A stretch of DNA of 64,000 nucleotides from an uncultured Phycisphaerales bacterium. Lineage in GTDB: Bacteria; Planctomycetota; Phycisphaerae; Tepidisphaerales; Tepidisphaeraceae. Where the stretch lies: assembly GCA_963758525.1 (NCBI GenBank), contig CAVWVQ010000005.1:288001-352000 (forward strand). The letters run 5' to 3'. The position numbers were made by a program, and so were the translations under genes. Shown piece after piece: positions 44,852-64,000 of this stretch. Positions within the stretch are counted from its first letter, which is position 1, and every line of letters starts with the position of its first letter. The notes beneath the pieces were generated by a model that worked only from the letters and a program-made list of their open reading frames with translations, made no database searches and was not told where the DNA came from.

Positions 44852-45007
44852 GCGCCGCTGGACGCACCTCGCAAGCGAGGCGGCTAACGGATGCGGAGTG
44901 CTTCGCACGCGGGAAGGATCATCTGACGACGCTGTGCCTTCTTGTTCTGGTGTCTTCTCATTCCGTATTCTTCAGCCGCCTCACTTGCGGGGCGTGTCCA
45001 GCGGCGC
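44852..45007. repeat. REP doublet upstream of RAYT (copies 44852..44887 + and 44972..45007 -)
   Basis: GCGCCGCTGGACGCACCTCGCAAGCGAGGCGGCTAA and an inverted copy; internal palindrome CCTCGC-AA-GCGAGG. Confidence 0.9.
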
Positions 45008-45033
45008 ATATATTCCACACCCAACGAGTTTCG

Positions 45034-45629
45034 ATGCGCCTGCTCGCCGCTCACATTATCTTTACCGCATACGGTTTCTGGCTGCCCAACGACCCGCGCG
45101 GTTCATGGAGCGAGTGGGTCGCCTCCTGGGAACTTCTCAAATACGGAAGGGCAACCAAAGTCGATCACGGCAGGTCCGTCGCTCGCGTGAAGCACGACGC
45201 GGATTTACGGAGAGCCGCGAAGCAGTCACTGAAATACAGTCCAGTGCTGTTTACCGGCCTGCAAGCGCGCAGCATCGCGCGCGGATTCAGTAGAGCGATT
45301 GACGAGGGCGACTATCCCGTTCACGCCTGTTCGATTTTGCCCGATCACGTTCATCTGGTAATCGGGGACCACGAACGACGGTTCCAGCAGATCACATCGC
45401 ATTTAAGGGTCATGCATCGCGGGCGTTGCGGGCAGAAGGATTGCATCCATTTGTGAAGCATGAAAGACCTGATGGGTCGCTGCCATCAATCTGGGCGGAG
45501 GGGTTGTGGAAGGTGTACTGCTATGATCGCGATCATGTTCTTGATGCGATCGGATACGTGGAGAGGAATCCGCTGCGCGAGGGGAAGCGCAGACAGCCCT
45601 GGTGGTTTGTCAGGGGCTTCGAGCAGTAG
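45034..45629 (+). mobile_element. REP-associated tyrosine transposase (RAYT, Y1 HUH family; frameshift near 45405)
   Basis: HIIFTAYGFWLPNDPRG N-terminus, HUH motif ILPDHVHLVI, HLKGHASRAL after adding one A, IWAEG, YVERNP; flanked by REP doublets; no tnpB. Confidence 0.88.
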
Positions 45630-45867
45630 CGCCGCTGGACGCACCTCGCAAGCGAGGCGGCTAACTAAAGGATTCGGAGTGCTTCGCATGCGCGAGGAAT
45701 CATTCGTGTCCTGTCGCTCAACTTCCTTATCCTTTAGCCGCCCCGCTCGCGGGGCGCGTCCAACGGCGCAACTATCGAGCAACCCAACGAGCTTCCTTAT
45801 CCTTTAGCCGCCCTCGCTCGCGGGGCGGGTCCAACGGCGCAACTATTGAGCAACCCAACGAGCTTCC
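45629..45867. repeat. REP cluster downstream of RAYT (45629..45664 +, 45734..45769 -, 45804..45840 -), last unit tandemly duplicated
   Basis: 45629..45664 is identical to 44852..44887; the about 70 bp unit cttccttatcctttagccg...ggcgcaacta..gagcaacccaacgag occurs twice. Confidence 0.9.
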
Positions 45868-48626: not shown

Positions 48627-48745
48627 GCAGGGGTCTTTAACGGAAGGCATTTTCATTCTAGGCGGGAGAAGCTGAAGCGGGGAAGGTTAAATCGCCGGAT
48701 CGGGACGGGCGTGAGCATCGATTCGGAAGTCCGTTCATCCAACTC

Positions 48746-48984
48746 TCGCGTGCGCAGCACTCCAAATCCTTTAGCCGCCTCGCTTGCGAGGCGTGTCCAA
48801 TGGCGCCGTTTCGCCGCTGAGCGCACAATGTACCAGTTCGCGCTCGCGTTCCCTCCCGCATCTGAAGTTCGGTGAATTGCTGAACATTTTGCGCCGCTGG
48901 ACACGCCCCGCAAGCAGGGCGGCTAAAGGATAAGGAAATTGAGCGACAGGAGATGAATGATCCTCCACAGGCTTCGCACGCGAG
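48746..48984. repeat. Distal REP cluster of the RAYT family (48771..48806 -, 48891..48926 +) with conserved flanking spacer sequence
   Basis: Reverse complement of 48771..48806 is GCGCCATTGGACACGCCTCGCAAGCGAGGCGGCTAA; 48891..48926 is GCGCCGCTGGACACGCCCCGCAAGCAGGGCGGCTAA; flanks match the 45665..45733 spacer. Confidence 0.88.
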
Positions 48985-49011
48985 CTGCAAAAAAGCTTGA
49001 GAGCGACAGGG

Positions 49012-50856
49012 CTACCGCGCTTCGGCGGTCTCCAGCGGGACTTGTCGGCGATATTCCTTCTCGTTGAAGTCGACCAGCTTCGGTCTAACGGAGGCAGGCG
49101 GCAACTCCAGCTCGGGCGAAGGGGGAACCTGCAGGTAAGTGAGGGCGCGCTGCATCATCTGCGACGCGCCGGGGGCGGAGACGGTGCCGCCGAAATGGGC
49201 GATGGCGGGGTCGGGCTCGTGAATGATGAAGGCGATGACCATCCGGGGATTCTCGGCGGGGGCGGCACAAATGAAACTGCTGGTGAAACGGGTGAGGCTG
49301 TAGCCGTTTTTCCCTTCGCTGATGTGCGCGGTGCCGGTCTTGCCGAAGAGGTTCCAGTATTCGCTGCGGGCTTTGGTGGCCGTGCCGCGGACGACCACGT
49401 CGCAAAGAATTTGCCGCATCTGCATCTCGGTTTCGGTGCTGATCATGCGCGGGCAGTCGGCAAGCGGTGTCGCTTTGTGCAGGGGGATGATCTGGCCATT
49501 GGGACCAAGCGTTCCTTTGATAATGGTGGGGCGAATCAGGCGTCCGCCGTTGGCGTAGGCGCAGAAGTTTCGGCAGAGTTGCAGCGGCGTGATGCGCAGC
49601 TCATATCCCTGCGCGACGGACTCGGTGCTGTATTTGTTCCACTCGCGCAGCGGATTGAGCCGGCCGGGATCTTCGCCGGGAAGTTCGATGCCGGTGGCGT
49701 GTCCATACTGCCACATGGCAAGAACCTGATGCAGGCGGGGATTGCCCATGCGTTCGCCCAGCATGGACATCACGATATTGCTGGATTTGACCAGCCCGTC
49801 CCATGTCGAGAGCGGGCCGTAGGCGTGCACGTCGGTGATGGTGCGGCCATACGGCGTGCGGTAAGTCTTGCCGGGGACGGGCCAGACTTCGTCGATGCGG
49901 GTGATGCCGGCTTCGAGTGCGGGGCCGGCGATGAAGGGCTTGCCCGTGGAACCGGGCTCGTAAGAATCGCAAACGGCGCGGTCGCGGCGAATTTTTTCAT
50001 CCGAATCGTTCAGATTCTGCGGATTGAACGTCGGCCAGTTCGCGAGAGCCAGCACTTCGCCCGTGCGGGGATCCATCGCGACAACTTCCCCGGATTTGAC
50101 CTTGAATTTCTCGCAGGTGGCGGAGAGTTCCTGCTCGGCGATCATCTGAATGTTCGTATCAATGGTCAGCACCAGATCCTGGCCCTGCTCCGGCGGCTGG
50201 TAGTCCTCGCTCGCAACCGAAATCGCGCGATGGTGCGCATCTTTGAGCGTGCGTTCCCACCCGTCGCGGCCCGTGAGCTGTTTGGCAAATGCCAGCTCAA
50301 CACCTTCCAGCCCCTTGCCATCCTTACCGACGCCGCCCAGCACATGGGCCGCGAGCGATCCCATCGGGTAATAGCGAAAGTTTGTCGGCTGCATGCCGAC
50401 GCCTGGAAGATCGAGCTTGCGGATTTGCGCGGACGTGGAATCGTCCAGGTTTTCGGCGACTTTGACAAACCGCGAGGTCGAGCGGTCGCCGAGCAACTGA
50501 GCGAGCTCAAACGAATCCCGATCGAGGATCTTCGCCAGCTTGCTGATCGCGTCATCCATCTCGACGAGGCTGTGGCCCTCCTGCTGGTAGAAATCAGACA
50601 GGAATTTGGGGTCTATAAAGAGAGTCTGCGTTTGAATGGTGCCGGCCATGAGCTGCCCGTTGGCGCTGAAGATCCCCCCGGGCCGCGCCGGGAGCGGGAT
50701 TGTCTCATGCTGCTGGCGCTCGGCGCGGGAGATCGTCTGCTGACGACCGATCGTTTCGAGATAGAGCACCCGGCCGAGCATTCCGACCAGGAGCAAGCAG
50801 ACCAGAACGAAGACCGCCGCGGCACGATGAAAGGAGAACGTCTTCATGGAGAGCAT
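49012..50856 (-). CDS. ftsI: Class B penicillin-binding protein (FtsI/PBP3-like)
   Basis: N-terminal TM, RYYPMG, GLEGVE, GQDLVLTID, EPGSTGK (SxxK), KSSNI (SxN), GKTGT; last gene of the dcw cluster. Confidence 0.9.
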   Translation of the reverse strand: MLSMKTFSFHRAAAVFVLVCLLLVGMLGRVLYLETIGRQQTISRAERQQHETIPLPARPGGIFSANGQLMAGTIQTQTLFIDPKFLSDFYQQEGHSLVEMDDAISKLAKILDRDSFELAQLLGDRSTSRFVKVAENLDDSTSAQIRKLDLPGVGMQPTNFRYYPMGSLAAHVLGGVGKDGKGLEGVELAFAKQLTGRDGWERTLKDAHHRAISVASEDYQPPEQGQDLVLTIDTNIQMIAEQELSATCEKFKVKSGEVVAMDPRTGEVLALANWPTFNPQNLNDSDEKIRRDRAVCDSYEPGSTGKPFIAGPALEAGITRIDEVWPVPGKTYRTPYGRTITDVHAYGPLSTWDGLVKSSNIVMSMLGERMGNPRLHQVLAMWQYGHATGIELPGEDPGRLNPLREWNKYSTESVAQGYELRITPLQLCRNFCAYANGGRLIRPTIIKGTLGPNGQIIPLHKATPLADCPRMISTETEMQMRQILCDVVVRGTATKARSEYWNLFGKTGTAHISEGKNGYSLTRFTSSFICAAPAENPRMVIAFIIHEPDPAIAHFGGTVSAPGASQMMQRALTYLQVPPSPELELPPASVRPKLVDFNEKEYRRQVPLETAEAR

Positions 50857-50916
50857 CTCAAGTCCGATAATGTCATCGGACAGGAAGCCCCGCCGGTTGC
50901 ATTGAAAATTCGCTGA

Positions 50917-52133
50917 TCAGCAGCCGCGGATGTACATCCGCGGCTTGATTGGGTGGGCCGCTGGGCTTTGAACAACAATGCGCGAATGCGCTGGAGCGGC
51001 GCCGGAAGGGAAGAGCAGTTGGGGACCTGTGTCGGCGAGGACTTCGCGATAGAGAGCGATGTGGCGCTGTGCCGCGGAGCGGGCATCAAAGTTTTCACTC
51101 GCGAACGCTTTGGCGCGCCGCGACCAGCGGATCAGTGCATCCGTGGATTTCATCGCCTTGGTCAGCGCCATGGCCGCGGCCGCGGAGTCCGTTGGAAGCA
51201 GCAGGCCCAGATCGTTGTCGCGAAACGCGGCTGCGAGATGAATCTGATTGGAAATCGCGCAGGGCACACCCAGATGCATGGCTTCCGCGATCGAGATGCC
51301 AAACGATTCAGATCGCGACATCTGAATGTACATCGTCGCGTCGCAGAGAGCCCGAACCTTGTCCTGGCCGTAGACCGGCGGATGGAAGAAGACATTGGCG
51401 GCGCAGCCGCAGCGAATTTGCCGAAGCCATTCGCGCGTCGCGTGGTCCTGCAGGCCATAGAGATGGAACTCATGGTCGCGCATGAGGCCCGCAACGCCCA
51501 GGAGCAGGTCAATTCCCTTGACATGCACGTCAAATCGGCCCAGAAAAACAAGCCGGGGGGGAGTGAAGTTCTGCTTCCACTGGCTGCCTGCCAACGCATC
51601 GGTGTCGACGCCAACGGGCATGTTGCGGATCGGGACAGTCGCGGGGCCAAGAAATGCCCGCAGATCAGCTTCTTCGCCAGTCGATGCGGTGAGCATTGCC
51701 GCGGAGAGGCAGCGGGGACGTTCCAGCACCCTGGCGTAAATGGCTTTCTTTATTCGATTATGACGCAACACTTCGGCGGAAAGGCCTCCATGCGGCGTGG
51801 TGATATAAGCGATCCCCATCGCGCCAACTGCCGGGCAAGGGATGCCTGGCGGGGGATGAAGACCGAATGCATATGAACCAGATCCGGCCGGCGCTCATCG
51901 ACCGCCTCCGCGAGCTTGCGATGGTTCACACTCCATAACCCGCCGCCCAGAAAGAGCAGGCGGATGCCCGCCGCCTTGGCCGCACTCAGCGCGGCGGCGC
52001 TCGGTACCACCCGCAGGAGAAGCGTCACCTGATGGCCAAGCCGCGCCTGATGCCGGGCGAGGAGCCAGATGGTGGCGTTGACACCGTTGACACCCACCGA
52101 ATTCGCATCGGCCCCGTCGTGCCAAATGCACAT
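50917..52133 (-). CDS. Glycosyltransferase family 4 (frameshift near 51815)
   Basis: NGVNATIWLLA..Q.RLGHQV, VHMHSVFIP, YITTPHGG, FLGRFDVHVKGIDLL, SRSESFGISIAEAMHLG. Start uncertain (52133 or up to 52241). Confidence 0.85.
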
Positions 52134-52407
52134 TGTACGGGCATCGACTTTCCGCGACTGAAGGTAGGAACCATCAGTTGAAGGGTGTTCGCGCAGATTG
52201 TATGGGCTCGCTTCAACACACATCAGTTGCTCGTCTCCCAACGGGCTGTTGATTCGTGGCGGACCTCAATTCTCCGGGTGGAGCGGTACTCCAAACCGAA
52301 GAAAATTGGTCAGCGCCCCGGATTCATATTCGGTCATTTCGGATTGCAAGAGAGGTGGTTTTCCAAAAATTCCGTAGGGGAATTCCCTGCCGGGCTCCGC
52401 CAATCCG

Positions 52408-52695
52408 CTACTCTGCGTCGGGCGTTTGGCTCTGCTGTGTCCAACTGCGGCTCACGGGGGAGTTGGAGAGGGGAACCATCCTAAAATGATGTGCGCTAAA
52501 GGTTTGCATAACCGCGGTGGGGCCGGTCCAAACTGCGATCTGCAGTTGCTGGTTCCACAGGCGGGACTGCTGATCCTCGATCTGATGATGTAATTCCGTT
52601 TGCTGATGCGCCAGTTCGAGGCGTTGCTGACGAAGCTGTACCATCCCAACAGCAAGGATGAGTCCGCTTCCGAGACATACAAGGAGCTTGATCAT
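52408..52695 (-). CDS. ftsL: FtsL-like cell division protein
   Basis: 95 aa, single N-terminal TM followed by a Leu/Gln heptad coiled coil; lies between rsmH and ftsI. Confidence 0.65.
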   Translation of the reverse strand: MIKLLVCLGSGLILAVGMVQLRQQRLELAHQQTELHHQIEDQQSRLWNQQLQIAVWTGPTAVMQTFSAHHFRMVPLSNSPVSRSWTQQSQTPDAE

Positions 52696-52739
52696 GAGGG
52701 ATGAGACACCGATGGTTTGCGGACGTTTGGAACCGGCGT

Positions 52740-53654
52740 TTACTGCGCGGACGCAAGCGGTTTAGCAGGAAGACGGAGCTTCATGTTGGGGTGAATGCTG
52801 CCGTTTCCCTTTAACACATCAGCATTTAAGTCTTTGATTGCTGTCCAAGCGCTCCCGTTGCCGAGTTGATCGGCGGCGATGCTCCAAAGGCTGTCATTCT
52901 CCTTAACAGTATACCAGAACTGGGCTTGATCACTCGCTGCGGGGCTCGCAGCGACCGGCGCGGTCGGTGTCGCTGGGACTTGCGTAATTGGAAGGGGCTG
53001 CGCACCCGTCGGCTGGGCGTCAGCCGCGCTCCCGGGAATGATGTATGCCCGGCCGACGATGATTTTGTTCGGATTGGACTTTAATGACGGATTTGCATTC
53101 ACGATCAGGTCGCGATTGGCCTTGGTGTTCCCGCCGAGGAATCGTCCCGCGAGCCGGTTGAGCGTATCGCCAGCCTGTGCCGTATATTTGCGGGCAGTGT
53201 TCCCGCCGGCCGGGACGCTGGTGGAATCGGCGCCGGAGGCGCCGATGATCGGCTCGCCGTTGGCGCGAGCCACTTCCTGAAGCGACCCGGGCTGCCCAAC
53301 CTGGGAGGCGGGGCTGTCACCATTCTTGCCCGGCTCTGAGGGGACTTGAGTGACGGTAACCTGACGGATCTGAATCGGCGTGTTGTTGCCGCCAGGACCG
53401 ACTCGCACGATGCTTTGGCCTGGGTCGCTATGGGTGGAAACGGTATCGCGCGGGGTAATGTTTTGTGTGACGACGGTGATCGGCGGGGGGTCTGTCACCG
53501 GCGCCGCAACGCTGTCGCGCACGTTGCCGGCCGTGTTGGTCAGCGGAGCCGCGACCGGCTCGGTTGTCGAAGACATGTGGTCGGAGAGAAGGATTCCGAT
53601 CACGATGATGAACGCCAGCCCGACTAAGAGCCCGATTTTCGTTTCACGTGTCAT
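52740..53654 (-). CDS. Membrane-anchored protein with two LysM domains
   Basis: MTRETKIGLLVGLAFIIVIGILL anchor, Pro/Thr linker, YTAQAGDTLNRLA...NP and YTVKENDSLWSIA...LN...LRLP. Confidence 0.88.
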   Translation of the reverse strand: MTRETKIGLLVGLAFIIVIGILLSDHMSSTTEPVAAPLTNTAGNVRDSVAAPVTDPPPITVVTQNITPRDTVSTHSDPGQSIVRVGPGGNNTPIQIRQVTVTQVPSEPGKNGDSPASQVGQPGSLQEVARANGEPIIGASGADSTSVPAGGNTARKYTAQAGDTLNRLAGRFLGGNTKANRDLIVNANPSLKSNPNKIIVGRAYIIPGSAADAQPTGAQPLPITQVPATPTAPVAASPAASDQAQFWYTVKENDSLWSIAADQLGNGSAWTAIKDLNADVLKGNGSIHPNMKLRLPAKPLASAQ

Positions 53655-53717
53655 TGGCTACCTCGACAACAACGGCGCTTCGGTCGGCCGATGCAAGACC
53701 GGAGCAAAACGGCAGAA

Positions 53718-54671
53718 CTATGCAATCTTCTCGGCAACGCGGAGCTTGGCGGAGCGGGAGCGGGGATTGCGGTCGGATTCGAGCGGCGAAGGAGTGACGG
53801 GCTTTTTGGTAAGCACCTTCATCTGCCCGGTCTGCTCCGCCGACCGAAATGCCTGCTTGACCATCCGATCCTCCGTCGATTGAAAACTGATCACCGCCGC
53901 GCGTCCCCCGGTTCGCAACAGCGATGGTCCTGCCTTCAGCAGGGCCGCGAGGTTCTCACGTTCCCGGTTTACTGCCATGCGCAGGGCCAGAAACGTGCGG
54001 GTTGCCGGATCAATTCTCTGCGGGGCTCCGCCCCGCGCCGGTATTGCCGAGCGAACCAGCTCGGCTAACCGATCTGTAGTCGTAATCGGCGAGATGGCGC
54101 GGGCCTGTCCAATCTTTCTGGCGATTCTGCGTGAATAACGCTCCTGTGCCAGTTCATATAGGACGTTGGCCAAATCTGTCTCGGAGAGAAAATTCACCAG
54201 ATCGGCGGCGGATTTTTCGGTCCGCGAGTCGATGCGCATGTCCAACGGCATGGGCTGGCGGAACGACATCCCATATTCCGTTTCGAAGAGCTGGTTGGTG
54301 CTGATCCCCAAGTCTGCAAGAAATCCATCCAGCGCTTCGACGCCTGCGGCGGAGACGACATCCGGCAGTTCCGAAAAGTTGGCGTGAAAGAAACGGACCT
54401 GGCAGGGGGCGTCGCGGAGCCGGTCGCGGGCAAATTGCAGATTTCGCGCATCGGCGTCGATACAGAGCAGGGTGCCATTGGGCGCCAGCTGCCGTGCAAG
54501 GAGGAGCGAATGCCCGCCTCGGCCGGTGGTGCAGTCGGCGAAAATTTGACCGGGACGCGGGGCGGTCAGTTCGATCACTTCGCCGGCAAGCACCGGCTCG
54601 TGACCGTGCGGCGCCGCTTTGCTTTCAACGGTGAAAGGATTTTCGTTGTAATTATCGTTATCGTCTGCCAT
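53718..54671 (-). CDS. rsmH: 16S rRNA m4C1402 methyltransferase
   Basis: HEPVL, DCTTGRGGHS, HANFSEL, DLGISTNQL, PLDMRID, PATRTFLALRMAVN, ISFQSTEDRMVK, NPRSRSAKLR; ATG 54671. Confidence 0.95.
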   Translation of the reverse strand: MADDNDNYNENPFTVESKAAPHGHEPVLAGEVIELTAPRPGQIFADCTTGRGGHSLLLARQLAPNGTLLCIDADARNLQFARDRLRDAPCQVRFFHANFSELPDVVSAAGVEALDGFLADLGISTNQLFETEYGMSFRQPMPLDMRIDSRTEKSAADLVNFLSETDLANVLYELAQERYSRRIARKIGQARAISPITTTDRLAELVRSAIPARGGAPQRIDPATRTFLALRMAVNRERENLAALLKAGPSLLRTGGRAAVISFQSTEDRMVKQAFRSAEQTGQMKVLTKKPVTPSPLESDRNPRSRSAKLRVAEKIA

Positions 54672-54799
54672 AATGTGCGGGTTCGGTCGATGTTCGTGAG
54701 GCACTACACTCAGAAGACTGGTGGAGCGTTCCCAGACCTCCGCGATGGCAGCATTAGTGTAAGAGTAATCGACCGACGCTGACGTGAGCGTTTGCAATA

Positions 54800-55345
54800 G
54801 ATGCGCCGGAGTGATCCGGCGCAACTGATGCCGCGGCACAATTGCTCGCGGCATAAACGCAGAGCCGGGGCTCCGCCCCCAAGCGATCTCCCAGGATCGA
54901 AAGGCCCCATCCGTGGGGCGACTCCACGTGCACAAATGCCGAGGCGCGATCCGTCGCGCTTTAAACCACCGCAAGCCTGCCTTGGCTTTGCGTGCGCGGT
55001 TCCCGCTGGACGAAGCTGCGCGATCCATCGCGCGAGCTTCGTCAGCGGGCGCCAGGCGGTTTCGCGTGTGACCAGGGGCGGCTTCACAACCCAAACGCCG
55101 CTCCACGCCGCACTTTCCGCATGACCACTGCCGCATCCTTGCGGCATCACCGTTCCCCCAGCCTGCGATCCGGCATCCATGCCTTTCGCCCGGCGAGGTT
55201 GACGGGCGAGGCATCCTGCCAGCGGCCCGTCACCGGTGGATCATTCGGCAGAAACCTTTGCCGACCAATCCGTTCAATTGTTGAAGCCTGCCTTCCCTGG
55301 AAGTGGCTTCGACGGCAATCCTTCGCCGTCTCCTGAATGTCGTCC
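54800..55345 (-). ncRNA. Candidate CsrB/RsmZ-like structured RNA: array of hairpins with GGA loops
   Basis: At least nine stem-loops with GGA in the loop on the minus strand, e.g. TGCCGCA-AGGA-TGCGGCA (55129..55146), GCGCGA-TGGA-TCGCGC (55018..55033), GCGCGA-CGGA-TCGCGC (54944..54959), GCCCCA-CGGA-TGGGGC (54904..54919). Ends are approximate. Confidence 0.6.
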
Positions 55346-55366
55346 CACTGCCGCGGCCACGCCCGG

Positions 55367-55849
55367 TTACGAAATGCTTGAATCCGGGTTCGCGGGTCCG
55401 CTGCCTTTTCTCTTCTGATCCATTATTTCTTTACGTCTCTCATGCAGGTCGTCCAGGTGCGCGTTCCAGTCTGCTCGATTCCAAATCTCGCAATGATCTC
55501 GCGAGCCAATCACCGTCACCGCACTCTCCGTTCCAGTTCGTTTCCTCAACGTCTCGGGAAGCAAGACCCGGCACTGTTTGTCAACCGCGACCAAATGAGC
55601 CGTCGGAAAATTAAGATGGTCGAAATCGAGCGCGGCATCCGCAGCCAATAGCGCGGGTGTCTCCTGCTTGACGAGCTGCTCGTAGTACTTCTCGGGGTAG
55701 AGCCAGATTTTGTTATTTTGCCCGAGGATGACAAAGAGGTTGGCCTCCCGCTCCGGCACAATCGAATTGCGGATGGCAGAGGGAATGAGCATGCGGCTCT
55801 TTTCGTCAAGGCTGATGTCATAGGATCCAAAAAGTAAGCCGTAGGTCAC
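55367..55849 (-). CDS. mraZ: Division/cell wall cluster transcriptional regulator MraZ
   Basis: LFGSYDISLDEKSRMLIPS, VDKQCRVLLP, VIGSRDHCEIWN; upstream of rsmH. Confidence 0.92.
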   Translation of the reverse strand: MTYGLLFGSYDISLDEKSRMLIPSAIRNSIVPEREANLFVILGQNNKIWLYPEKYYEQLVKQETPALLAADAALDFDHLNFPTAHLVAVDKQCRVLLPETLRKRTGTESAVTVIGSRDHCEIWNRADWNAHLDDLHERRKEIMDQKRKGSGPANPDSSIS

Positions 55850-55876
55850 TGGGTTTCCGGTTGCCCTTCATCGACC

Positions 55877-55901
55877 AGCACTTTTTACCACAGAGACCCA
55901 C
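55877..55901 (-). promoter_or_regulatory. Putative MraZ operator (three GTGG-type boxes, 10-bp period)
   Basis: Minus strand GTGGG-tctct-GTGGT-aaaaa-GTGCT, ending 27 bp upstream of the mraZ start. Confidence 0.7.
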
Positions 55902-55977
55902 CGAAGCTAGAAAAAAATCGTGAGCTTCGAGAAAAACTTTAAAATCGGCTGAAACCAGCTGCGATTGAGGCTGAAGA

Positions 55978-55997
55978 GGTGGAGAAGCTGTGGATAA
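55978..55997. promoter_or_regulatory. DnaA box (perfect) with an adjacent degenerate box
   Basis: TGTGGATAA at 55989..55997 (reverse complement TTATCCACA); GGTGGAGAA at 55978..55986 has two mismatches. Confidence 0.55.
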
Positions 55998-56013
55998 GTT
56001 GGCGACAAGCATC

Positions 56014-56658
56014 TCACATCCATCGGGTCGAGTGCCGTCTGGCTCGTGATGCGCGAAATATAGCGAAAATAGCGAAGGAAGCAATTGGGGGAAGAAGTGG
56101 AGTGAAAAATCTAAAATTCGGCCCATCGGTGGCGATTTGAATCGCGTTCGTCATGGGGCCGGCAACAACTTGGGGCAGCGGACCGGCGATTTGCAGAAAT
56201 TCCAATCGCAAATAAACCAGCAAGCCTCCCCCAATGGACCACACGATCGCGATTACCCAGGAAATACTTCTCGTTGGCCGCGAGCGGAACGCCGACGCCG
56301 CCATGGCAACCGCAACGAGCCACAGATCGGCGTCAATTTCTCCGCGCACGGTCGCGCCCAATGGAGCCGAGCTGAGGGTCCCCGCGATCAGCGCGATTGG
56401 CCACCCCGCAAGTACCGCCATGGCCGCCTTTGTCCAGTCCTCCAGAACGGGCAGCACCGCGGCGGCGGTTGCAATCTGCACCGCGAGCATCAGCGCCAGC
56501 GCCAGCGATTCGCCCGCAGGCGGGAATCGCGCCCAAAGTGGAACGCGAAACGCCGCGAGCGCCACCGCCGCTAGTTGAGGAGCGAGCCATCCCGCCAGAA
56601 AAGCGGATCGGGCAGCAATCTGAGAATCGGAATTGCGATCGGGGGAAGCGAGGTCCAT
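56014..56658 (-). CDS. Hypothetical multi-pass membrane protein
   Basis: 214 aa with about six hydrophobic segments; co-oriented between ftsQ and mraZ. Confidence 0.7.
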   Translation of the reverse strand: MDLASPDRNSDSQIAARSAFLAGWLAPQLAAVALAAFRVPLWARFPPAGESLALALMLAVQIATAAAVLPVLEDWTKAAMAVLAGWPIALIAGTLSSAPLGATVRGEIDADLWLVAVAMAASAFRSRPTRSISWVIAIVWSIGGGLLVYLRLEFLQIAGPLPQVVAGPMTNAIQIATDGPNFRFFTPLLPPIASFAIFAIFRASRARRHSTRWM

Positions 56659-56722
56659 CGGCGTCGATGAATGTTACCGCCGATTGTCCAAGCTGGCGCT
56701 GACTGAATCTAACTGGCTGGGT

Positions 56723-57657
56723 CTAACCGCGGGCCGCCAGGGGTGTGGGATATCGTACACCTTCAAACCGCAGGTCAATCCACGGCTGGCGCATGTCAAC
56801 GCGCCCGAATTTCTCGTATACCTCTTTCAGCTCCGCAAGCTTTCGCTCCGGCCGAACTTCGATGAATGCGTCCCGGTCGCTGCGGCGCGCCCCCACAGAA
56901 TGCTCGTTCCGTAGCGTGTCATCAGTGCGATCTGAGTGGCGTCATGATTCAGCCGGCCGCCAAAGTTCGCGACGTCGATCTTGACGATGTCCTCCGTGTA
57001 AGCGCGATTGAACAACACTGCCGCCATCTCCAGCCCCGCGGCAAGATCAGCTCCGTCCCATTTCTTTCCCGCCTCAGGCGGCGGCGTGCGCACCCCGTCG
57101 ATAATCCGCAGGTTGATTCGGCCGTCCGCTCCCACCACTTCTCCCGGCATCTTCGCGGCCGAATATTGCTCGGGAAGCTTGCAGGCGTCGCGATCAACCA
57201 GCCAGTAGTATTGCCCCCACCGCACCCACGCCGCCGGGACCCGGAAATCACAGTCGAGTTCCAGCGTATCGCCGGGCTGATTCGTATAAGCGCGACGAAC
57301 TTCGTTGACTTGGGCGATCCACGGATCGGCTTCGAGCGCCTTGCGCGTGTCCTGCAGCATCTGACGATCAAACGCGGAATGGGCTCCCTTGGGGCGAGCC
57401 ACGTCCGCTATCTGTTCGACGACGTTGTCGCTCATCCATTGCGGGCGATTCTTGATGACCACAATCATCGAATCGGAAGTAATCGCGATGTCTCGCTCGA
57501 CGTGTAGTTTCAAACGATCCAGCCCGAACGCAGCGCCCCCCAGCAGGATGATCGCCAGCAGCATCTGCGCGAAAACACGCCGCACCTTCGCGGCGGTCTG
57601 CGCGGTCTTGGCGTTCCCCTTGGCGGGGGACTTAGGCTTACTATTCTGCGCCATCAA
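56723..57657 (-). CDS. ftsQ: FtsQ/DivIB-like cell division protein (frameshift near 56883)
   Basis: Basic N-tail, single TM, POTRA-like LEADPWIAQVNEVRR, FRVPAAWV, LVDRD; the shifted frame ends ...QPWIDLRFEGVRYP...* (IDLR motif); follows ddl. Confidence 0.75.
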
Positions 57658-57993
57658 TTTATTTATCGGACGGAAGGGGGGAGAACAGTAGGGGAGATCA
57701 ATTCAGCCAAATCATCTTGGTGTCTGGTCTGGCTTCGGCGAGTGAGCGATGGATCTCAGCGACTCATGAGCGCGGTATTCAGCACCTCGTTTGTCATTGC
57801 AGAGAGCTGCGTTAGACTTTTCCCCGCACAGGCAGCGGCGACATCGCCGAGCGGTGTGCTGGAGTCATGGAGGCGGCCGCGCATCAGACACAGCCAAGCC
57901 AAGTAAAATCGTCCGGAAGATGTGGAGCACCGGGCACGCATTTGCGCGAAATCGGCATGCGATCGCCGGGGTTTGATGGACTCATGTGGGGTC

Positions 57994-58904
57994 CTATGCC
58001 GCCGCGCGTTTCCGCTGATACGCTCTTCGCACCAGCAGATCGACTAGTGCCCCAAACTCAATGCCAGCATGCTTGGCTGCTTCGGGCAGCAGACTCTTTG
58101 GCGTGAATCCGGGAAGCGTGTTGATCTCCAGCAAAAACGGGTTGTGCTGCTTGTCCAGCATGATGTCGACCCGGGCCAGATCGCGTGCGCCGACTACCTC
58201 GTTCGCTTGGCGCACCAATTCCTGGCAGCGCTTCACGACAGCGTCCGGCAGACCGGTGTCGAAACGATGCTCGGTATCGCTGGCCTTGTACTTCGCTTCG
58301 AAGTCGAAAAACTCTCGCTTGGGCACAATGCGGATGGGGGCGAGCGGTCGTTCCTCCAGGAGGCCGACGGTCAGTTCGACGCCATCAATGAACTGTTCGA
58401 CGAGAACCGCATCATGCTTGGCAAGCAACTGTTTGATCGCCGCTTGCCCTGCGCCGGTTGCTCCGCAGGAGATTTGCAGAGAATCACGTCGATGCTGCTG
58501 CCGCTGCTGATCGCCTTGACGACGCATGACGTGGGCGCGTCGGGGAGAACGTCTCCGCGTTTCACGACACGGTAGGCCGGCGTCGGCAAATTTGCAGTTA
58601 CCCAGGCGCGTTTCGTGTCGACCTTGTTCATTCCCAGCCGCGAGGCTGCACTTCCGCTGCCGACGAAGGGAATCCCGTGTTGCTCGAGGATCTCCTGCAG
58701 TTCCCCGCTCTCGCCAAACTGTCCGTGCAGCACCGGAAACACGACGTCGGCAGGGTGATCGAGTCCAGAAAGGTCACCTGGGGAGACGTCGCTGCCGAAG
58801 ACGGTGTGTCCCATCGATCGCAATCCGTCGATGACCGCTTTCCCACTGACGAGGCTGACTTCACGTTCAACGCTGGGGCCGCCGTAGAGGACGGTGACGT
58901 TCAT
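57994..58904 (-). CDS. ddl: D-alanine--D-alanine ligase (frameshift near 58448)
   Basis: VLYGGPSVEREVSLVSG, FPVLHGQFGESG, GSS, VEQFIDGVELTVG, FFDFEAKY, ARVD, LEINTLPGFT. Confidence 0.95.
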
Positions 58905-58929
58905 TGGCGATTCCTTTCGCTTCAATCTT

Positions 58930-59053
58930 TCTCCCGGTACTCCGGGAGAGTGCTGGGGTCAGGGTGATTTCGGATGTCGCGCGCCGCTGAGACCTGGAAA
59001 TCACCCTTGCCCCAACCTTCTCCCCGACTACGGGAGCGGGGGTGAAGAGGGAA
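58930..59053. repeat. Inverted pair of CCCTCACCCC...CTCTCCC-type REP-like palindromes in the murB-ddl gap
   Basis: TCTCCCGG-TACT-CCGGGAGA hairpin at 58930..58949; 58944..58971 is imperfectly complementary to 58997..59024. Confidence 0.65.
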
Positions 59054-59063
59054 CAGACGTACT

Positions 59064-59978
59064 TCACGGCCAGATGCGCACTTCCGTTTCCAGATGCACC
59101 TGCTGCTTGTCGTACACTTTCTCCTGCACGATCTTGATCAGTTTCAGCACGTCATCTGACGTGCAGCCGGGATGCGCCACGATAAAGTTGGCATGCTTGG
59201 CGCTGACTTCCGCGCCGCCCACCCGCAAGCCCTTCAGCGCCGCCTGGTCGATCAGAGCACCGGCGCTGAGTCCGCGCGGATTCTTGAAGATGCACCCGGC
59301 ATTTTTCGTGTTGAGCGGCTGGGTGTTGCGCTTGAACATCCAGATCTGCTTGGTCCGCTCCATGATCGTGCGCGGCTCTTCCTCTTCGAGCTCGAGCGTT
59401 GCGCCGAGAATGAACGGCGCGGTGATGTTCGTCGAGCGATAATCGAACACCAGGTCATCCTTCATGCGCTCGAAAATGACACCGGCCGAGTCCATCACCT
59501 GCACGCGGGACACCACCGCGCCCAGGTCGCCGAATTTTCCGCCGGCATTCATGCGCACGCCGCCGCCGAGCGTTCCGGGAATCCCCGCCAGGCACTCGAT
59601 TCCCGCCAGTCCCTGCCGCACGGTGCGAAGCAGCAGCTTTTGCATGTCCACGCCGGCGCCTGCCTCGACCATGTTTCTGTCGTATCGGACGCGGCGCCAA
59701 TGTTCCGCGTCGAGCCGGAAGACGGCTCCATCGACGCCGTTGTCGCTCACCAGCAGATTCGCGCCCAGCCCCAGCACGTAAAAGCGAATCCCTTCCTCGC
59801 TGCAGCGCTGCGCCGCCTGCTGCAGTTCTTCAGGAGTGCGCGGCTGCAGGAACCAGCGCGCGGGCCCGCCGATGCGGTACCAGGTATGGGGAGCCAGCGT
59901 CTCGTTTTCCTTGACGATCTCCTCGAGCCCCGCGAACGGGTTGGGTCGTGCCAGGCGCATGCTCATCGTGGTGCTCAT
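59064..59978 (-). CDS. murB: UDP-N-acetylenolpyruvoylglucosamine reductase
   Basis: RIGGPA, LGLGANLLVSD, GIPGTLGGGVRMNAG, YRST, TQP, AGCIFKNP, VSAKHANFI, LETEV. Confidence 0.96.
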   Translation of the reverse strand: MSTTMSMRLARPNPFAGLEEIVKENETLAPHTWYRIGGPARWFLQPRTPEELQQAAQRCSEEGIRFYVLGLGANLLVSDNGVDGAVFRLDAEHWRRVRYDRNMVEAGAGVDMQKLLLRTVRQGLAGIECLAGIPGTLGGGVRMNAGGKFGDLGAVVSRVQVMDSAGVIFERMKDDLVFDYRSTNITAPFILGATLELEEEEPRTIMERTKQIWMFKRNTQPLNTKNAGCIFKNPRGLSAGALIDQAALKGLRVGGAEVSAKHANFIVAHPGCTSDDVLKLIKIVQEKVYDKQQVHLETEVRIWP

Positions 59979-59982
59979 CGGA

Positions 59983-61410
59983 TCACGGTTCGTGGATCAG
60001 GCTGTGCCCGATTTCCCATACGTTGCCAGCACCCATCGTCACAATCAAGTCGCCCGCCTCGGCGGCCGCTTTGAGATACGACGTGATCTGATCGAAGTGC
60101 GAGAGATACCGCGCTCGCTGCCCATTTTGCACGATTCGATCGACCAGGTCGATGGCGCTGACTCGGCCGCGCTCCAACTCGCTGTCGCGCACAAAATAAA
60201 TGTCGGGAACGATCACCTCGTCGGCCTCGGCGAAGCTCGACGCAAAGTCCTCCAGCAGAAACCGCGTCCGGCTGTGCTGATGCGGCTGAAACACGCAGAA
60301 CAGGCGTTTGGGCCGGTAGCGCCCGCGCAACGCCGCCAGCGTCGCGCGGATTTCCGTGGGGTGATGACCGTAATCGTCCACGACGACCGCGCCGTTGCGC
60401 CGTCCTACTTCGGTCATGCGCCGATCGACCCCCGCGAAATGCCGCATCGCTTCCGCCGCCGCCGCAGGCTCAGCCCCGCAGGCAACGCACGCGGCGACGG
60501 CCGCCGTCGCGTTAAAGAGATTGTGCAGGCCCGCCACGGAAAGCCGCAGCTCGCAGACGAACTCGCCATTGTAACGGAGTCGCCCGATATAGCAGCCGTG
60601 CTCCTCGCCCGTAACGTCCGTCCGCCAGACGGCATCGGCATCGAGCGCCACGGTTTGCAGCGGAGCCGAAGCGTCGCGCATTGCCTCGGCAACGTGCTCG
60701 TCGGCGCCATTCACAATCAGCACGCCGTCCCTGGGCACAAGTTGGGAGAACCAGCGGAAGGCCTCAATGATCTCGTCGATGTCGTGGTAACAGTCGAGAT
60801 GGTCCTCCTCGATGTTCGTGATGATCGCGACCTGTGGCCGCAGGTGATGGAAGCTGCGGTCAAACTCGCACGCCTCGGCCACGAACAGCCGCGACGCGCC
60901 AGAATGGCTGCCGCCGCCCAACTGCGGAACGGTTCCGCCCACCACAAAGCTTGGGTCCATCCCCAGCCGCGTGAGGGCGAAGGCGACCATCGCCGTCGTC
61001 GTCGATTTCCCATGTGTGCCCGCGACCGCGACGCCGAACCGCTCCTGCATCACCTGCCCGAGCAGTTCCGCATACTTGACAGTCGTGAGCTGGAGCGATT
61101 GCGCGACCTGAAATTCGGCGTTGGAGTCGCTGATCGCCGCCGTCCGCACGACCAGATCGATCTCGCGCGAAAGCAGCGTTCCAGTCTGGTCGCGCGAGAT
61201 GTGAGCGCCGCGTCTGCCCAGTTCCCGGCTGGTGGCGTTGGGGCGCAACTCCGTACCGCTCACCACCGCGCCGCTGTCGAGCAGCATCTGCGCCAGGCCG
61301 CTCATTCCGCTGCCGCCGATCCCGATGAAATGCACGCGCTGCCCCGCAAATCGGCTCAACGACCGCGAATCCATTCGCAACCCAGCAGCAGCTTCCATGA
61401 CGGACGGCAT
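59983..61410 (-). CDS. murC: UDP-N-acetylmuramate--L-alanine ligase
   Basis: HFIGIGGSGMSGLA, AVAGTHGKSTTT, EACEFDRSF, TNIEEDHLD, GLHNLFNA, DDYGHHPTE, FQPHQHSRT, TMGAG. Confidence 0.96.
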   Translation of the reverse strand: MPSVMEAAAGLRMDSRSLSRFAGQRVHFIGIGGSGMSGLAQMLLDSGAVVSGTELRPNATSRELGRRGAHISRDQTGTLLSREIDLVVRTAAISDSNAEFQVAQSLQLTTVKYAELLGQVMQERFGVAVAGTHGKSTTTAMVAFALTRLGMDPSFVVGGTVPQLGGGSHSGASRLFVAEACEFDRSFHHLRPQVAIITNIEEDHLDCYHDIDEIIEAFRWFSQLVPRDGVLIVNGADEHVAEAMRDASAPLQTVALDADAVWRTDVTGEEHGCYIGRLRYNGEFVCELRLSVAGLHNLFNATAAVAACVACGAEPAAAAEAMRHFAGVDRRMTEVGRRNGAVVVDDYGHHPTEIRATLAALRGRYRPKRLFCVFQPHQHSRTRFLLEDFASSFAEADEVIVPDIYFVRDSELERGRVSAIDLVDRIVQNGQRARYLSHFDQITSYLKAAAEAGDLIVTMGAGNVWEIGHSLIHEP

Positions 61411-61446
61411 CGTACACCTCAGGGGTGAGAGATTAAAGAGAGCAGG

Positions 61447-61632
61447 GTCGGGAGGTCAGGAGTCAGAAGCCAGAAGCAACAAGCAGGCACGGAGGCACGG
61501 AGGCACGAAGGCACGAAGGCACGAAGGGGAGGACGCTGCGCGGCGGAGCATTTCATTTATCGTATACCCTTCCTTACCCTTCGTGCCTTCGTGCCTCCGT
61601 GCCTTTCCCCATCCGTGCCTATGTGCCTTCAT
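61447..61632. repeat. Inverted 8-nt repeat tracts (GGCACGAA/GGCACGGA) plus a 7-nt tract in the murG-murC gap
   Basis: 61485..61528 aggcacggaggcacggaggcacgaaggcacgaaggcacgaagg versus 61578..61632 ccttcgtgccttcgtgcctccgtgcc...; 61447..61480 ggtcgggaggtcaggagtcagaagccagaagc. Confidence 0.85.
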
Positions 61633-62751
61633 CCCTTGCCCCAACCATCTCCCCAACTACATCCGCGACGCGATCCGCGGCATCGGGTTTTCCGATGCGA
61701 CGGGCGGCATCGGACATTTCACGCCGGCGAGCGCCGTCGTGCAGCAATCGCTCAACAACCGGCCGCAACTTCGCCGCGTTGCGCGCGGGATCTTTCTCAT
61801 CTTTCACGCGGATCGCAGCGCCGGCTCCCGAGAGCACGTGGGCATTGAGCCGCTGATGCATGTCCTTATGAAACGGGTAGGGCATCAGCACCGACGGGAT
61901 GCCGCACGCGGTCAACTCCGCGCAACTGCTCGCGCCCGCCCGGCTGATGGCCAGATCCGCCACCGCCCAGACGTCGGCCATCGCGGGCGTGAAATCGATC
62001 ACCCGCGCTCCAATTTCCGTCTCGCGATATGCACCGCGCACTGCGGCGGCGTGTTCGCGACCGGCCAGGTGCAACACCTGCCATCCGTCCAGCGTCATCC
62101 CCGAGAGCATCCTCACCGCGGCCTCGTTCACCGTCTGCGCTCCCAGCGAAGCGCCGGTAATCACCAGCGTCCGCAGCATCGGATCGAGGCTCAGCCGGCC
62201 GGCGGCTTCTTCCCGCGCAGGAAGGTGACGCAGTTCTTCGCGAATGGGGCAGCCGGTCATCCTGATCTTTGCACGATTGGCGGGGCTGATGAACTTGCTC
62301 GTCAATTCGAACTGGCAGCAGACCGCGAGCACCTTTGAGGTGAGAAATTGATTGGCCTTGCCGGGAATCACGTCAGGGTTCAGCAGGGCACAAGGAATAT
62401 TCCGAGAGGCCGCCATGCGGATTGCCGCTCCGGCCGCGAAGCCGCCCAGCCCGATCGCCGCGGTCACGCGCTCGCGCTTGAACATCGCGCGCAGCAGATC
62501 TTTCGTCTCGCGCCATGCCCGCCAGAATTTCAACAGACCGCTGACGCTCGTCGAAGGGGGGACAATCGGCTGCGCAATGTATTCAAATCCCGTCGGTCCG
62601 AGAATGACTTTGTCGATCTCGCGCTGTGTGCAGAGAAACAAAATGCGCAGATTCCCCATGCGCCGCGCAGCGCCTCGGCAACAGCTACGCCCGGGTACAA
62701 ATGACCGCCGGTGCCTCCGCCGGCAAGCACGATAGTTTGAGATTCGGCCAT
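61619..62751 (-). CDS. murG: Undecaprenyl-PP-MurNAc-pentapeptide GlcNAc transferase (frameshift near 62660)
   Basis: AGGGTGGHLYPG, GLGGF, PGKAN, TGCPIR, TGASLGA, SRAGASSCAE, PYP...HQRLNA. Confidence 0.95.
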
Positions 62752-62838
62752 TGAACGTCGAGTACAGCGTATCCGCCTCTGGCGAATCCGACATCCACCG
62801 GGCGACTTTCCCGCTCTTCATCGGCCCCGCCGGTGGAT

Positions 62839-64000
62839 TTACTCGACTGTCGGCGCCGCGCCCAATAACACCGCCTCTTCTGCCTTTTCCGGGCCGCGGC
62901 GCGCCACGCTGTACAACACCCCCAGGGCTCCGCACGTGATCACCAGTCCGCTTCCCCCAGCGCTAATCAGCGGCAGCGATAAGCCTTTCGGGGGCACGCT
63001 CACTGTGGCAACGGCAATGTTAATCGCCGCCTGCAACCCCAGCATGGTCGTGATCCCAAAGGCGAGCATGCGTCCGAAATCGTCACGCTTCTGCTTGATG
63101 ATCTGCCAGCCGACGAACAGCACGCCCAGATAAAGCGCGACCGTCAGCATCGCCCCGAACAATCCCAGTTCTTCGCAAATCACCGCGAAAACAAAGTCGG
63201 TCGTGTCTTCCGGCAGATACCCGAGTTTCTGAATTCCATTTCCCAGTCCGCGTCCCAAAATCCCGCCGCTGGAAAAGCTCAGCAGGCTCTGAATCATGTG
63301 ATATCCCTGCCCCTGCGGCGAATCGTACGGATGCAGAAACGAGGTGATGCGGGCCATGCGATATGCCTTGTGCGTGACAAACCAGGCAGCCACCGCCAGC
63401 GCCGGAAACAGAACGATCATCAAGTGACCGACCTTGACCCGCCCGGCCAGCAGCATCATCAACGCGCAGAGCCCGATCAGCGCCGCGGTTCCAAAATCCT
63501 GAATCACCACCAGCAGGCAGAGCATGCCGACCGGAATCAGCGTCGGGAGAAATCCCCGGAAGAAACGTTCTAAGTTCACCGGATGAATCGTCAGCCAGTA
63601 TGCGAGAAACAAAACCGCCGCCCACTTGGCCAATTCCGACGGCTGCATCTGAATCGGCCCCAGCTTGATCCAGCGCCGCGCCCCATTGACCGACATGCCG
63701 ATCCCCGGCACCAGCACGAGCAGGCAGCTAATTGCCGCGATCACCACCGCCCACATGATCGGCGAGCGCATCCACGACCCGCTCTGCATCGACAAGCGCG
63801 AATAATCAAACCTGCCCACCGCCATGAACGTCGCAAACGCCGCGACGGCGAATTTGAGCTGCTTGATCCCCACGACGGACCAGTGCCAACCTCCATGGTT
63901 GTCTGTCATCGCTCCCAGCGACGTGGAAGCGGACTGCACCATCACGATTCCCATAGCCAGCAGCGCAAGCACGCAAAGGACCAGAATATCCTGCGTCCGC
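62839..64000 (-). CDS. ftsW: SEDS family peptidoglycan glycosyltransferase (start lies beyond window edge)
   Basis: NGARRWI, QPSELAK, QDFGT, GYHMIQSL, GRGLGNGIQK, LPEDTTDFVFAVICEELG, PPKGLSLPLISAGGS; directly upstream of murG. Confidence 0.93.
   Translation of the reverse strand, partial: RTQDILVLCVLALLAMGIVMVQSASTSLGAMTDNHGGWHWSVVGIKQLKFAVAAFATFMAVGRFDYSRLSMQSGSWMRSPIMWAVVIAAISCLLVLVPGIGMSVNGARRWIKLGPIQMQPSELAKWAAVLFLAYWLTIHPVNLERFFRGFLPTLIPVGMLCLLVVIQDFGTAALIGLCALMMLLAGRVKVGHLMIVLFPALAVAAWFVTHKAYRMARITSFLHPYDSPQGQGYHMIQSLLSFSSGGILGRGLGNGIQKLGYLPEDTTDFVFAVICEELGLFGAMLTVALYLGVLFVGWQIIKQKRDDFGRMLAFGITTMLGLQAAINIAVATVSVPPKGLSLPLISAGGSGLVITCGALGVLYSVARRGPEKAEEAVLLGAAPTVE

Follow-up and report, generated by a model that had tools for sequence, protein, structure and literature searches.

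Sponge RNAs of the CsrB/CsrC type in Escherichia coli and of the RsmX/RsmY/RsmZ type in Pseudomonas are several hundred nucleotides long, present many GGA triplets in loops, with ANGGAN hexaloops on stems of variable sequence, and occur in genomes that encode CsrA (PMC7652899, a 2020 review, in its accessible text). The same text gives ANGGAN as the consensus loop obtained by CsrA SELEX and NMR, as bound by CsrA/RsmE, and reports four or fewer base pairs for most of the SELEX winners; RNA specificity differs among CsrA homologues (PMC12247646). Planctomycetes are listed among the phyla that may use the protein FliW instead of small RNAs, and the BarA-UvrY/GacS-GacA systems are anti-correlated with fliW (PMC4682653). 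The joint action of FliW and small RNAs on CsrA was described as undetermined in any species in the available part of the 2020 review (PMC7652899).

Sponges that are predicted, not validated, have been published outside Gammaproteobacteria, namely TwoAYGGAY and Bacillaceae-1 (PMC4333381, accessible part). TwoAYGGAY (RF01731), known also from Clostridia, consists of two AYGGAY-loop hairpins on a common basal stem and is multi-copy in Pseudomonas (PMC4333381, 10.64898/2026.09.22.753630, as far as their accessible texts go). RsmW of Pseudomonas aeruginosa provides a precedent for a sponge derived from a 3' UTR; the available text describes an RNA of about 120 nt with three of seven GGA triplets in loops and a hypothetical host gene (PMC4950607). 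In Campylobacter jejuni, CsrA is titrated beside FliW by the flaA mRNA, that is, by the leader of a repressed target itself (PMC4894983, accessible part). Two structured RNAs have been reported at the mraZ/mraW locus, UpsM of Rhodobacter sphaeroides, which lies 5' of mraZ and is Hfq-dependent (PMC5089854), and the actinobacterial mraW motif RF01746 (PMC2864571); neither is described as a GGA array in the accessible parts of these sources.

The candidate CsrA-binding RNA analysed here (54850..55366, minus strand, ends approximate) lies in a window of 64,000 nt, the whole stretch of planctomycete DNA under study, and directly follows the stop codon of mraZ. It shares with CsrB and RsmZ the abundance of loop GGA, the ANGGAN hexaloops, the variable stems, the length and the presence of CsrA in the genome. 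Unlike them, it has no Rfam match, lies outside Gammaproteobacteria, coexists with fliW, has no sigma-70-type promoter of its own that we could find, ends in a conserved four-way junction and has a weak terminator. The array probably works like CsrB/RsmZ and is not a member of that group by homology, as CsrB/RsmY/RsmZ-type Rfam models gave no match. Comparison with CsrB, CsrC, RsmX/Y/Z and the mraW motif had been proposed in a preliminary description of this DNA, and it returned no relevant family in the window or in the loci of 16 relatives. The TwoAYGGAY model gave 0 matches in 5 genomes at E 5; unlike TwoAYGGAY, the array is single-copy and fixed behind mraZ, and its junction carries a third hairpin between the two GGA loops on the basal stem. 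In comparison with RsmW, the array is longer (about 500 nt) and has 7-8 loops, its host gene is the division regulator mraZ, and CsrA binding is here a prediction. Whereas flaA is a target's own leader, the array would be a dedicated non-coding trailer on a non-flagellar gene.

In the open texts searched, we found no report of this array and none of sponges in Planctomycetota, and the main text of the TwoAYGGAY preprint (10.64898/2026.09.22.753630), whose supplements could bear on distribution, mentions neither Planctomycetes nor mraZ in its accessible part. By these searches the family is undescribed, and predicted sponges outside Gammaproteobacteria are already in print in the form of TwoAYGGAY.

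The hairpin array and its conservation

The genes on either side, named in the preliminary description, were upheld by Pfam: mraZ (55367..55849, 160 aa; PF02381, E 1e-21), the inferred host gene of the trailer, and its downstream neighbour rsmH (mraW; 53718..54671; PF01795). The spacer from the mraZ stop to the rsmH start measures 695 nt (54672..55366), in agreement with the earlier estimate of about 690 bp. All features described in this section lie on the minus strand, the strand of mraZ. Reading from mraZ, an AAGGAU-loop hairpin (55311..55330), whose GGA has a predicted unpaired probability of 1.0, is followed by the conserved 5' module, a hairpin with an AGGGAA hexaloop and a bulged outer stem (55283..55310). 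Sequence and predicted fold then give an AGGAU loop capping a longer stem (55210..55220), an AUGGAU loop (55172..55183) and an AAGGAU loop (55129..55146), and, beyond a middle module without GGA (the GGUUGUG..GCC arm, 55075..55104), an AUGGAU loop that caps a long stem (55018..55033) and an ACGGAU loop (54944..54959). The conserved 3' module is a four-way junction with a closing helix (54859..54927) and a weak U-rich tail after it; two of its hairpins have GGA loops (54904..54919 and 54867..54879), and the middle one (54884..54899) is variable. Many of the stems are long and GC-rich, in contrast to the short stems of most SELEX winners. The nine hairpins quoted originally were all recovered letter for letter; that list had overlooked the best-conserved hairpin, 55283..55310, whose AGGGAA loop is only 0.41 unpaired in the predicted ensemble of the source genome. 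It had also counted 54884..54899 as a GGA site, which is not conserved: relatives often have CUGCAA or CUGUAA there, and this junction hairpin with its varying loop is probably no CsrA site.

A recount of GGA in 54861..55350 gave the same strand bias as before, 19 on the minus versus 4 on the plus strand. The spacer holds 22 GGA versus 14.3 in shuffles (9 of 2000 shuffles as high). Its A(N)GGAN loops with a closing stem of 3 bp or more number 7, whereas 5000 dinucleotide shuffles averaged 0.27 and never exceeded 4. In the 6.47-Mb genome, the array is the top 500-nt cluster of A(N)GGAN hairpins (7; the next has 4). However, control loop motifs reach 4-6 per 500 nt genome-wide, and one reaches 12, so a single genome is not decisive and the case rests on relatives. 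GGA had a mean predicted unpaired probability of 0.63; five trinucleotides used as controls lay at 0.13-0.43, and AGG, which overlaps GGA, reached 0.66. Predicted folding energy by itself favours the plus strand (z of -6.3) over the minus strand (z of -2.9).

Among named relatives, those closest in MraZ carry the label Tepidisphaerales or Tepidisphaeraceae, and the family sample comprised 37 genomes, the source genome included (the unpublished genome G004 is counted in the tallies and in alignment A2; no claim depends on it alone). BLASTN with the spacer against 61 genomes returned just weak, short matches, in 9 genomes including the source, and the corresponding DNA of relatives was therefore taken by synteny, behind mraZ. 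At least two hairpins were found there in 34 of the 37 family genomes and at least three in 30; the three exceptions are one contig ending 70 nt past the stop codon and two genomes with one hairpin. The orientation is strongly biased, with 160 hairpins on the mraZ strand and 6 antisense. Other Phycisphaerae have at least two hairpins in 13 of 23 cases. Across the class, 59 spacers with a length of 200 nt or more held 204 hairpins in total, against 17.5 expected; 46 of these spacers reached p<0.05, and the remaining 13 come mostly from families other than that of the source genome. When stem-closed hexaloops were ranked in 58 class-wide spacers without demanding GGA, the ten commonest were all ANGGAN, led by ACGGAU, AAGGAU and AUGGAU, and accounted for 146 of 915 such loops on the sense strand and 0 of 802 on the opposite strand. 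The loops thus match the CsrA consensus in length and in the positions of A and GGA. Loop conservation in Phycisphaerae spacers, suggested earlier as a check, is borne out: the GGA loops are kept among relatives, on stems that differ. We conclude that the hairpin array behind mraZ is a real, conserved family of predicted RNAs.

Three modules recur in constant order: the 5' AGGGAA hairpin, the middle arm without GGA and the 3' four-way junction. The 8-mer core of the 5' module, CAGGGAAG, is present in 41 of 62 family spacers, and the module begins 12-180 nt past the mraZ stop in 28 of the 29 spacers having it. The middle module, found in 18 of 62 family spacers, always lies between the other two where these were found. 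For the junction, 47 of 48 pattern-picked examples were aligned, one with a long insertion being left out. In this alignment 92% of cells pair, none of 500 shuffles being as high and slid controls far lower. Covariation, another of the checks suggested at the outset, was found as well, with compensatory changes at 12 of 20 junction pairs (0 of 500 shuffles as high). The pattern demanded GGA in the last loop, whose invariance is therefore by construction; the first loop, where GGA was not demanded, is A-N-GGA in 42 of 47. G-U cells outnumber A-C cells by 151 to 21, which favours an RNA read from the mraZ strand, with the caveat that the structure had been predicted on that strand.

A covariance model of the junction matched in 27 of 80 genomes, some of which may overlap its training set: the source genome, 24 of 35 others of the family and 2 of 44 outside it, with no match in 11 of the 35. 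The 25 strong matches, those with an E of 1.4e-4 or better, all follow mraZ directly and on its own strand, with one in each genome, indicating a single-copy array; three weaker matches that are not behind mraZ are probably due to chance.

Linkage to mraZ, promoter and 3' end

The link of the array to rsmH is not obligate. Where mraZ precedes rsmH, 18 of 20 spacers carry at least two hairpins, and upstream of 10 rsmH loci without mraZ in the preceding 1.5 kb there are 0 or 1 (one locus is cut by a contig end). Conversely, all 12 family genomes with rsmH elsewhere and enough DNA keep at least two hairpins behind mraZ. Since the array stays behind mraZ when rsmH is elsewhere, and is absent before those rsmH genes, it is not an rsmH leader, and the intercistronic leader that had been offered as an alternative to a sponge is not supported. 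In the window, the last hairpin ends about 190 nt before the rsmH start and the hairpins overlap no ribosome-binding site. The genes downstream of the array vary; 29 of 78 loci have no rsmH in view, some of them being cut by contig ends.

A conserved, predicted sigma-70-type promoter precedes mraZ, with a median score of 13.9; the stretch from mraZ to the array scored 5.8, the same as coding DNA. With the matrix used, trained on 10 mraZ-upstream sites, no sigma-70-type promoter was found between mraZ and the array; alternative-sigma promoters would escape it. The 230 nt around the mraZ stop have no common motif except the 5' hairpin. An exact DnaA-box 9-mer upstream of mraZ (55989..55997, minus strand) is present in 26 of 37 family genomes. 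GTGG boxes with 10-bp spacing (55878..55902, minus strand) lie over the inferred sigma-70-type mraZ promoter, and paired boxes of this type occur in 25 of 37 family mraZ promoters and in 4 of 62 spacers; GTGG repeats form the MraZ operator of Bacillus subtilis according to the accessible text of 10.1101/2022.02.09.479790. The link of MraZ and DnaA to transcription of the locus that had been envisaged earlier agrees with the presence of both kinds of boxes at the mraZ promoter.

Just after the junction, 30 of 53 relatives have a U-rich tail, compared with 11 of 53 and 9 of 53 in controls, and in some relatives the array ends in a clear U-tract terminator. No terminator was called on the minus strand in the window, as had been remarked before. 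A long-range helix between the 5' and 3' ends was considered as a processing stem and rejected, the median energy being -51.0 kcal/mol for a locus's own ends and -50.1 kcal/mol for cross-species pairs (53 loci). The simplest reading of these sequence data is that the mraZ message carries the array as a 3' trailer whose end is leaky, and synteny and promoter pattern would fit an RsmW-like origin by co-transcription with mraZ and processing. The weak terminator here, together with tails in 30 of 53 relatives, makes read-through and a role in cis possible.

CsrA, FliW and the proposed role of the array

The csrA gene, whose absence would have spoken against a sponge, is present in the source genome, where it adjoins fliW, and two further CsrA-domain frames were found there. 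The main CsrA is canonical in retaining the N-terminal LVLSR strand and the HRKE motif, and has a longer C-terminus; its best PDB match is chain D of 5DMB, the FliW complex. In the wider samples, 60 of the 61 genomes drawn from the class carry csrA, and 58 of the 61 drawn from the family carry fliW. In none of the loci analysed did csrA adjoin the array. Three Phycisphaerae CsrAs are listed in the Swarm-seq supplement, and the two entries examined give no activity class. Regarding the CsrA-domain frames L002:1501-1644 (-) and L003:1366-1809 (-), one of the two apparently enters a deaminase-like frame through a frameshift or overlap, and the other encodes a protein of 147 aa whose CsrA-like domain is split or doubled.

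When the genome was scanned at 4-bp stems, the second and third clusters of GGA hairpins were located upstream of a flagellin gene and of fliW (G000:C3:3745005-3745345 and C3:4289720-4289913), with the flagellin ribosome-binding site inside a GGA loop. Both leaders are likely CsrA targets; flagellin mRNA is the textbook CsrA target of FliW-bearing bacteria in the available parts of PMC7652899 and PMC4894983. In 78 other Planctomycetota (2 of 80 genomes had no mraZ place), at least one hairpin stands behind mraZ in 11 of 35 genomes with csrA and 1 of 43 without; three or more stand there in 4 of 35 (Phycisphaerae in two cases) and 0 of 43, respectively. This co-occurrence is only suggestive, as kin are not independent and the spacers of csrA-less genomes are shorter. 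Most csrA-bearing Planctomycetota outside the class are without the array. Within the class, the csrA-less genome G038 has no hairpins, and since G047 and G056 have csrA yet likewise no hairpins, G038 is uninformative.

Conservation among relatives, the type of loop, the covarying pairs and a csrA gene in the genome all support the sponge proposed in the preliminary description. In the model that we favour, and regard as somewhat better than an even bet, the array is a 3' trailer of the mraZ message that binds several CsrA dimers and titrates CsrA. It would be co-transcribed from the mraZ promoter, as the lack of any other detectable sigma-70-type promoter suggests; the closing helix of the junction would serve as the 3' end or as a barrier to decay; several CsrA dimers would bind the A(N)GGAN loops, by analogy with E. 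coli and Pseudomonas; and the trailer, whether still part of the message or released by cleavage, would titrate CsrA in trans away from targets such as the flagellin leaders. The level of the sponge would then depend on a promoter that has DnaA boxes as well as MraZ-type ones, and FliW and the array RNA would both antagonise CsrA. Conserved non-GGA sequence in the middle module and the junction is not explained by a plain sponge. A more far-reaching version can be put forward only tentatively: that the mraZ 3' end of Phycisphaerae is a dedicated sponge, the boxed promoter letting replication and division gate flagellin translation, in a non-gammaproteobacterial family beside FliW that replaced a small CsrA-regulated gene still carried by other Planctomycetota.

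Several other explanations must be weighed against the trans-acting trailer. CsrA might bind the array and act in cis, on the stability of the mraZ message or on read-through into rsmH and downstream genes, which would make mraZ a target and not an antagonist. The fixed position at mraZ, the lack of an own sigma-70-type promoter and the weak terminator fit this reading, as does the occurrence, at the same spot in other lineages, of a small ORF whose ribosome-binding site is covered by GGA hairpins or has them close by. However, two or three sites would suffice for such control, whereas the array has up to 7-11; moreover, the gap of about 190 nt to rsmH leaves no ribosome-binding site overlapped, and the downstream genes vary, so that we consider a role in cis rather unlikely. 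Less probable still is a stand-alone sRNA gene of the CsrB type, with an alternative-sigma promoter, that merely lies behind mraZ. Its size and the 22 GGA of the spacer resemble CsrB (22 GGA in the accessible text of PMC7652899), and some relatives have clear U-tract terminators, but only the 5' hairpin is common around the mraZ stop, that module keeps its distance from the stop in 28 of 29 spacers, and 25 of 25 strong matches remain behind mraZ though rsmH moved off repeatedly.

We give little credence to the idea that the RNA is real and serves another protein ligand, or that its GGA loops are docking sites in a larger fold. The conserved non-GGA modules speak for it, and the similar TwoAYGGAY has unproven CsrA binding and behaves as a mobile repeat in the accessible text of 10.64898/2026.09.22.753630, but the loop consensus agrees with that of CsrA, the same hairpins recur at the flagellin and fliW leaders, and hairpins are found in 1 of 43 csrA-less versus 11 of 35 csrA-bearing genomes, with the dependence among kin and the shorter csrA-less spacers noted above. 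Highly improbable, finally, is that there is no RNA element at all. In favour of this, one 11-mer core has 39 occurrences genome-wide, an open frame of 186 codons extends into rsmH, and MraZ boxes are G-rich. REP-like repeats were rejected because the spacer as a whole is unique in the genome, where a REP/BIME element should have dispersed copies and the array is single. An N-terminal extension of RsmH, which the preliminary description had named as a refuting finding, was rejected as well: the frame is not conserved, spanning 1-55 codons in 22 of 24 family spacers, and the length of 186 codons is matched by one relative. MraZ operator DNA was rejected on the 4 of 62 spacers with GTGG pairs, compared with 25 of 37 promoters, and on an ANGGA spacing without a 10-nt period; the excess of G-U over A-C cells also speaks for RNA. 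A small-ORF profile found nothing in the family spacers, and by these sequence comparisons the array is non-coding.

Cell division in Planctomycetota is poorly understood, and a sponge at this place would tie post-transcriptional control to a conserved division regulator, mraZ. The family has fliW in 58 of 61 genomes and a large predicted RNA with CsrA motifs at a fixed locus, and one carrier of the array, Fontivita pretiosa (L142), is in culture, which makes the question of joint FliW and RNA action directly testable.

The same place in other Planctomycetota, and neighbouring genes

In other lineages, an unannotated ORF of about 65-90 aa lies directly behind mraZ in 74 of 202 distinct Planctomycetota spacers, none of them from the family of the source genome. 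Examples are L179:2488-2694 (+), L069:2119-2367 (+), L257:1001-1219 (-) and L287:263-517 (+). Nine tested products had no Pfam match above the cut-off, and the source genome has no convincing copy. When 168 spacers no shorter than 200 nt were sorted by hairpin number, the ORF was missing from 66 of the 73 that have at least three hairpins and present in 49 of the 58 that have none, and 12 spacers combine it with two hairpins or more. The ORF and a large array are thus nearly mutually exclusive, and GGA hairpins sometimes lie over the ribosome-binding site of the ORF. The array may have grown from the CsrA-controlled message of the small-ORF gene; a quick MraZ tree, with long branches and 27 of 53 inner branches open, does not resolve the order of the two states.

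A different element was seen behind mraZ in genomes of family f17, from another class (L112, L123, L124, L128, L255 and L258), with 9-14 csrA paralogues each. It has a conserved stem-loop of the CUACCGGGC type, which reads AAACCGGGC in one of them, together with some GGA hairpins, and three examples end in a clear U-tract terminator; four tested examples had no Rfam match.

Two DNA sequencing runs gave five short contig pieces and were uninformative. The gene order of the dcw cluster in the window (49012-64000, minus strand) is unusual by inspection, with ftsW, murG, murC, murB, ddl and an ftsQ-like gene upstream of mraZ, and a LysM protein, an ftsL-like ORF, glycosyltransferase frames and a PBP after rsmH. 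ddl lies in two frames (58371-58925 and 57994-58527), possibly through a frameshift or an assembly error. The ORF 44950-45456 (+) looks by eye like a REP-associated (HUH) tyrosine transposase and is flanked by imperfect repeats near 45486-45782 and 48653-48990. A second rsmH-like gene (G000:C5:60422-61300, +), 44% identical, is also present in many genomes of the family.
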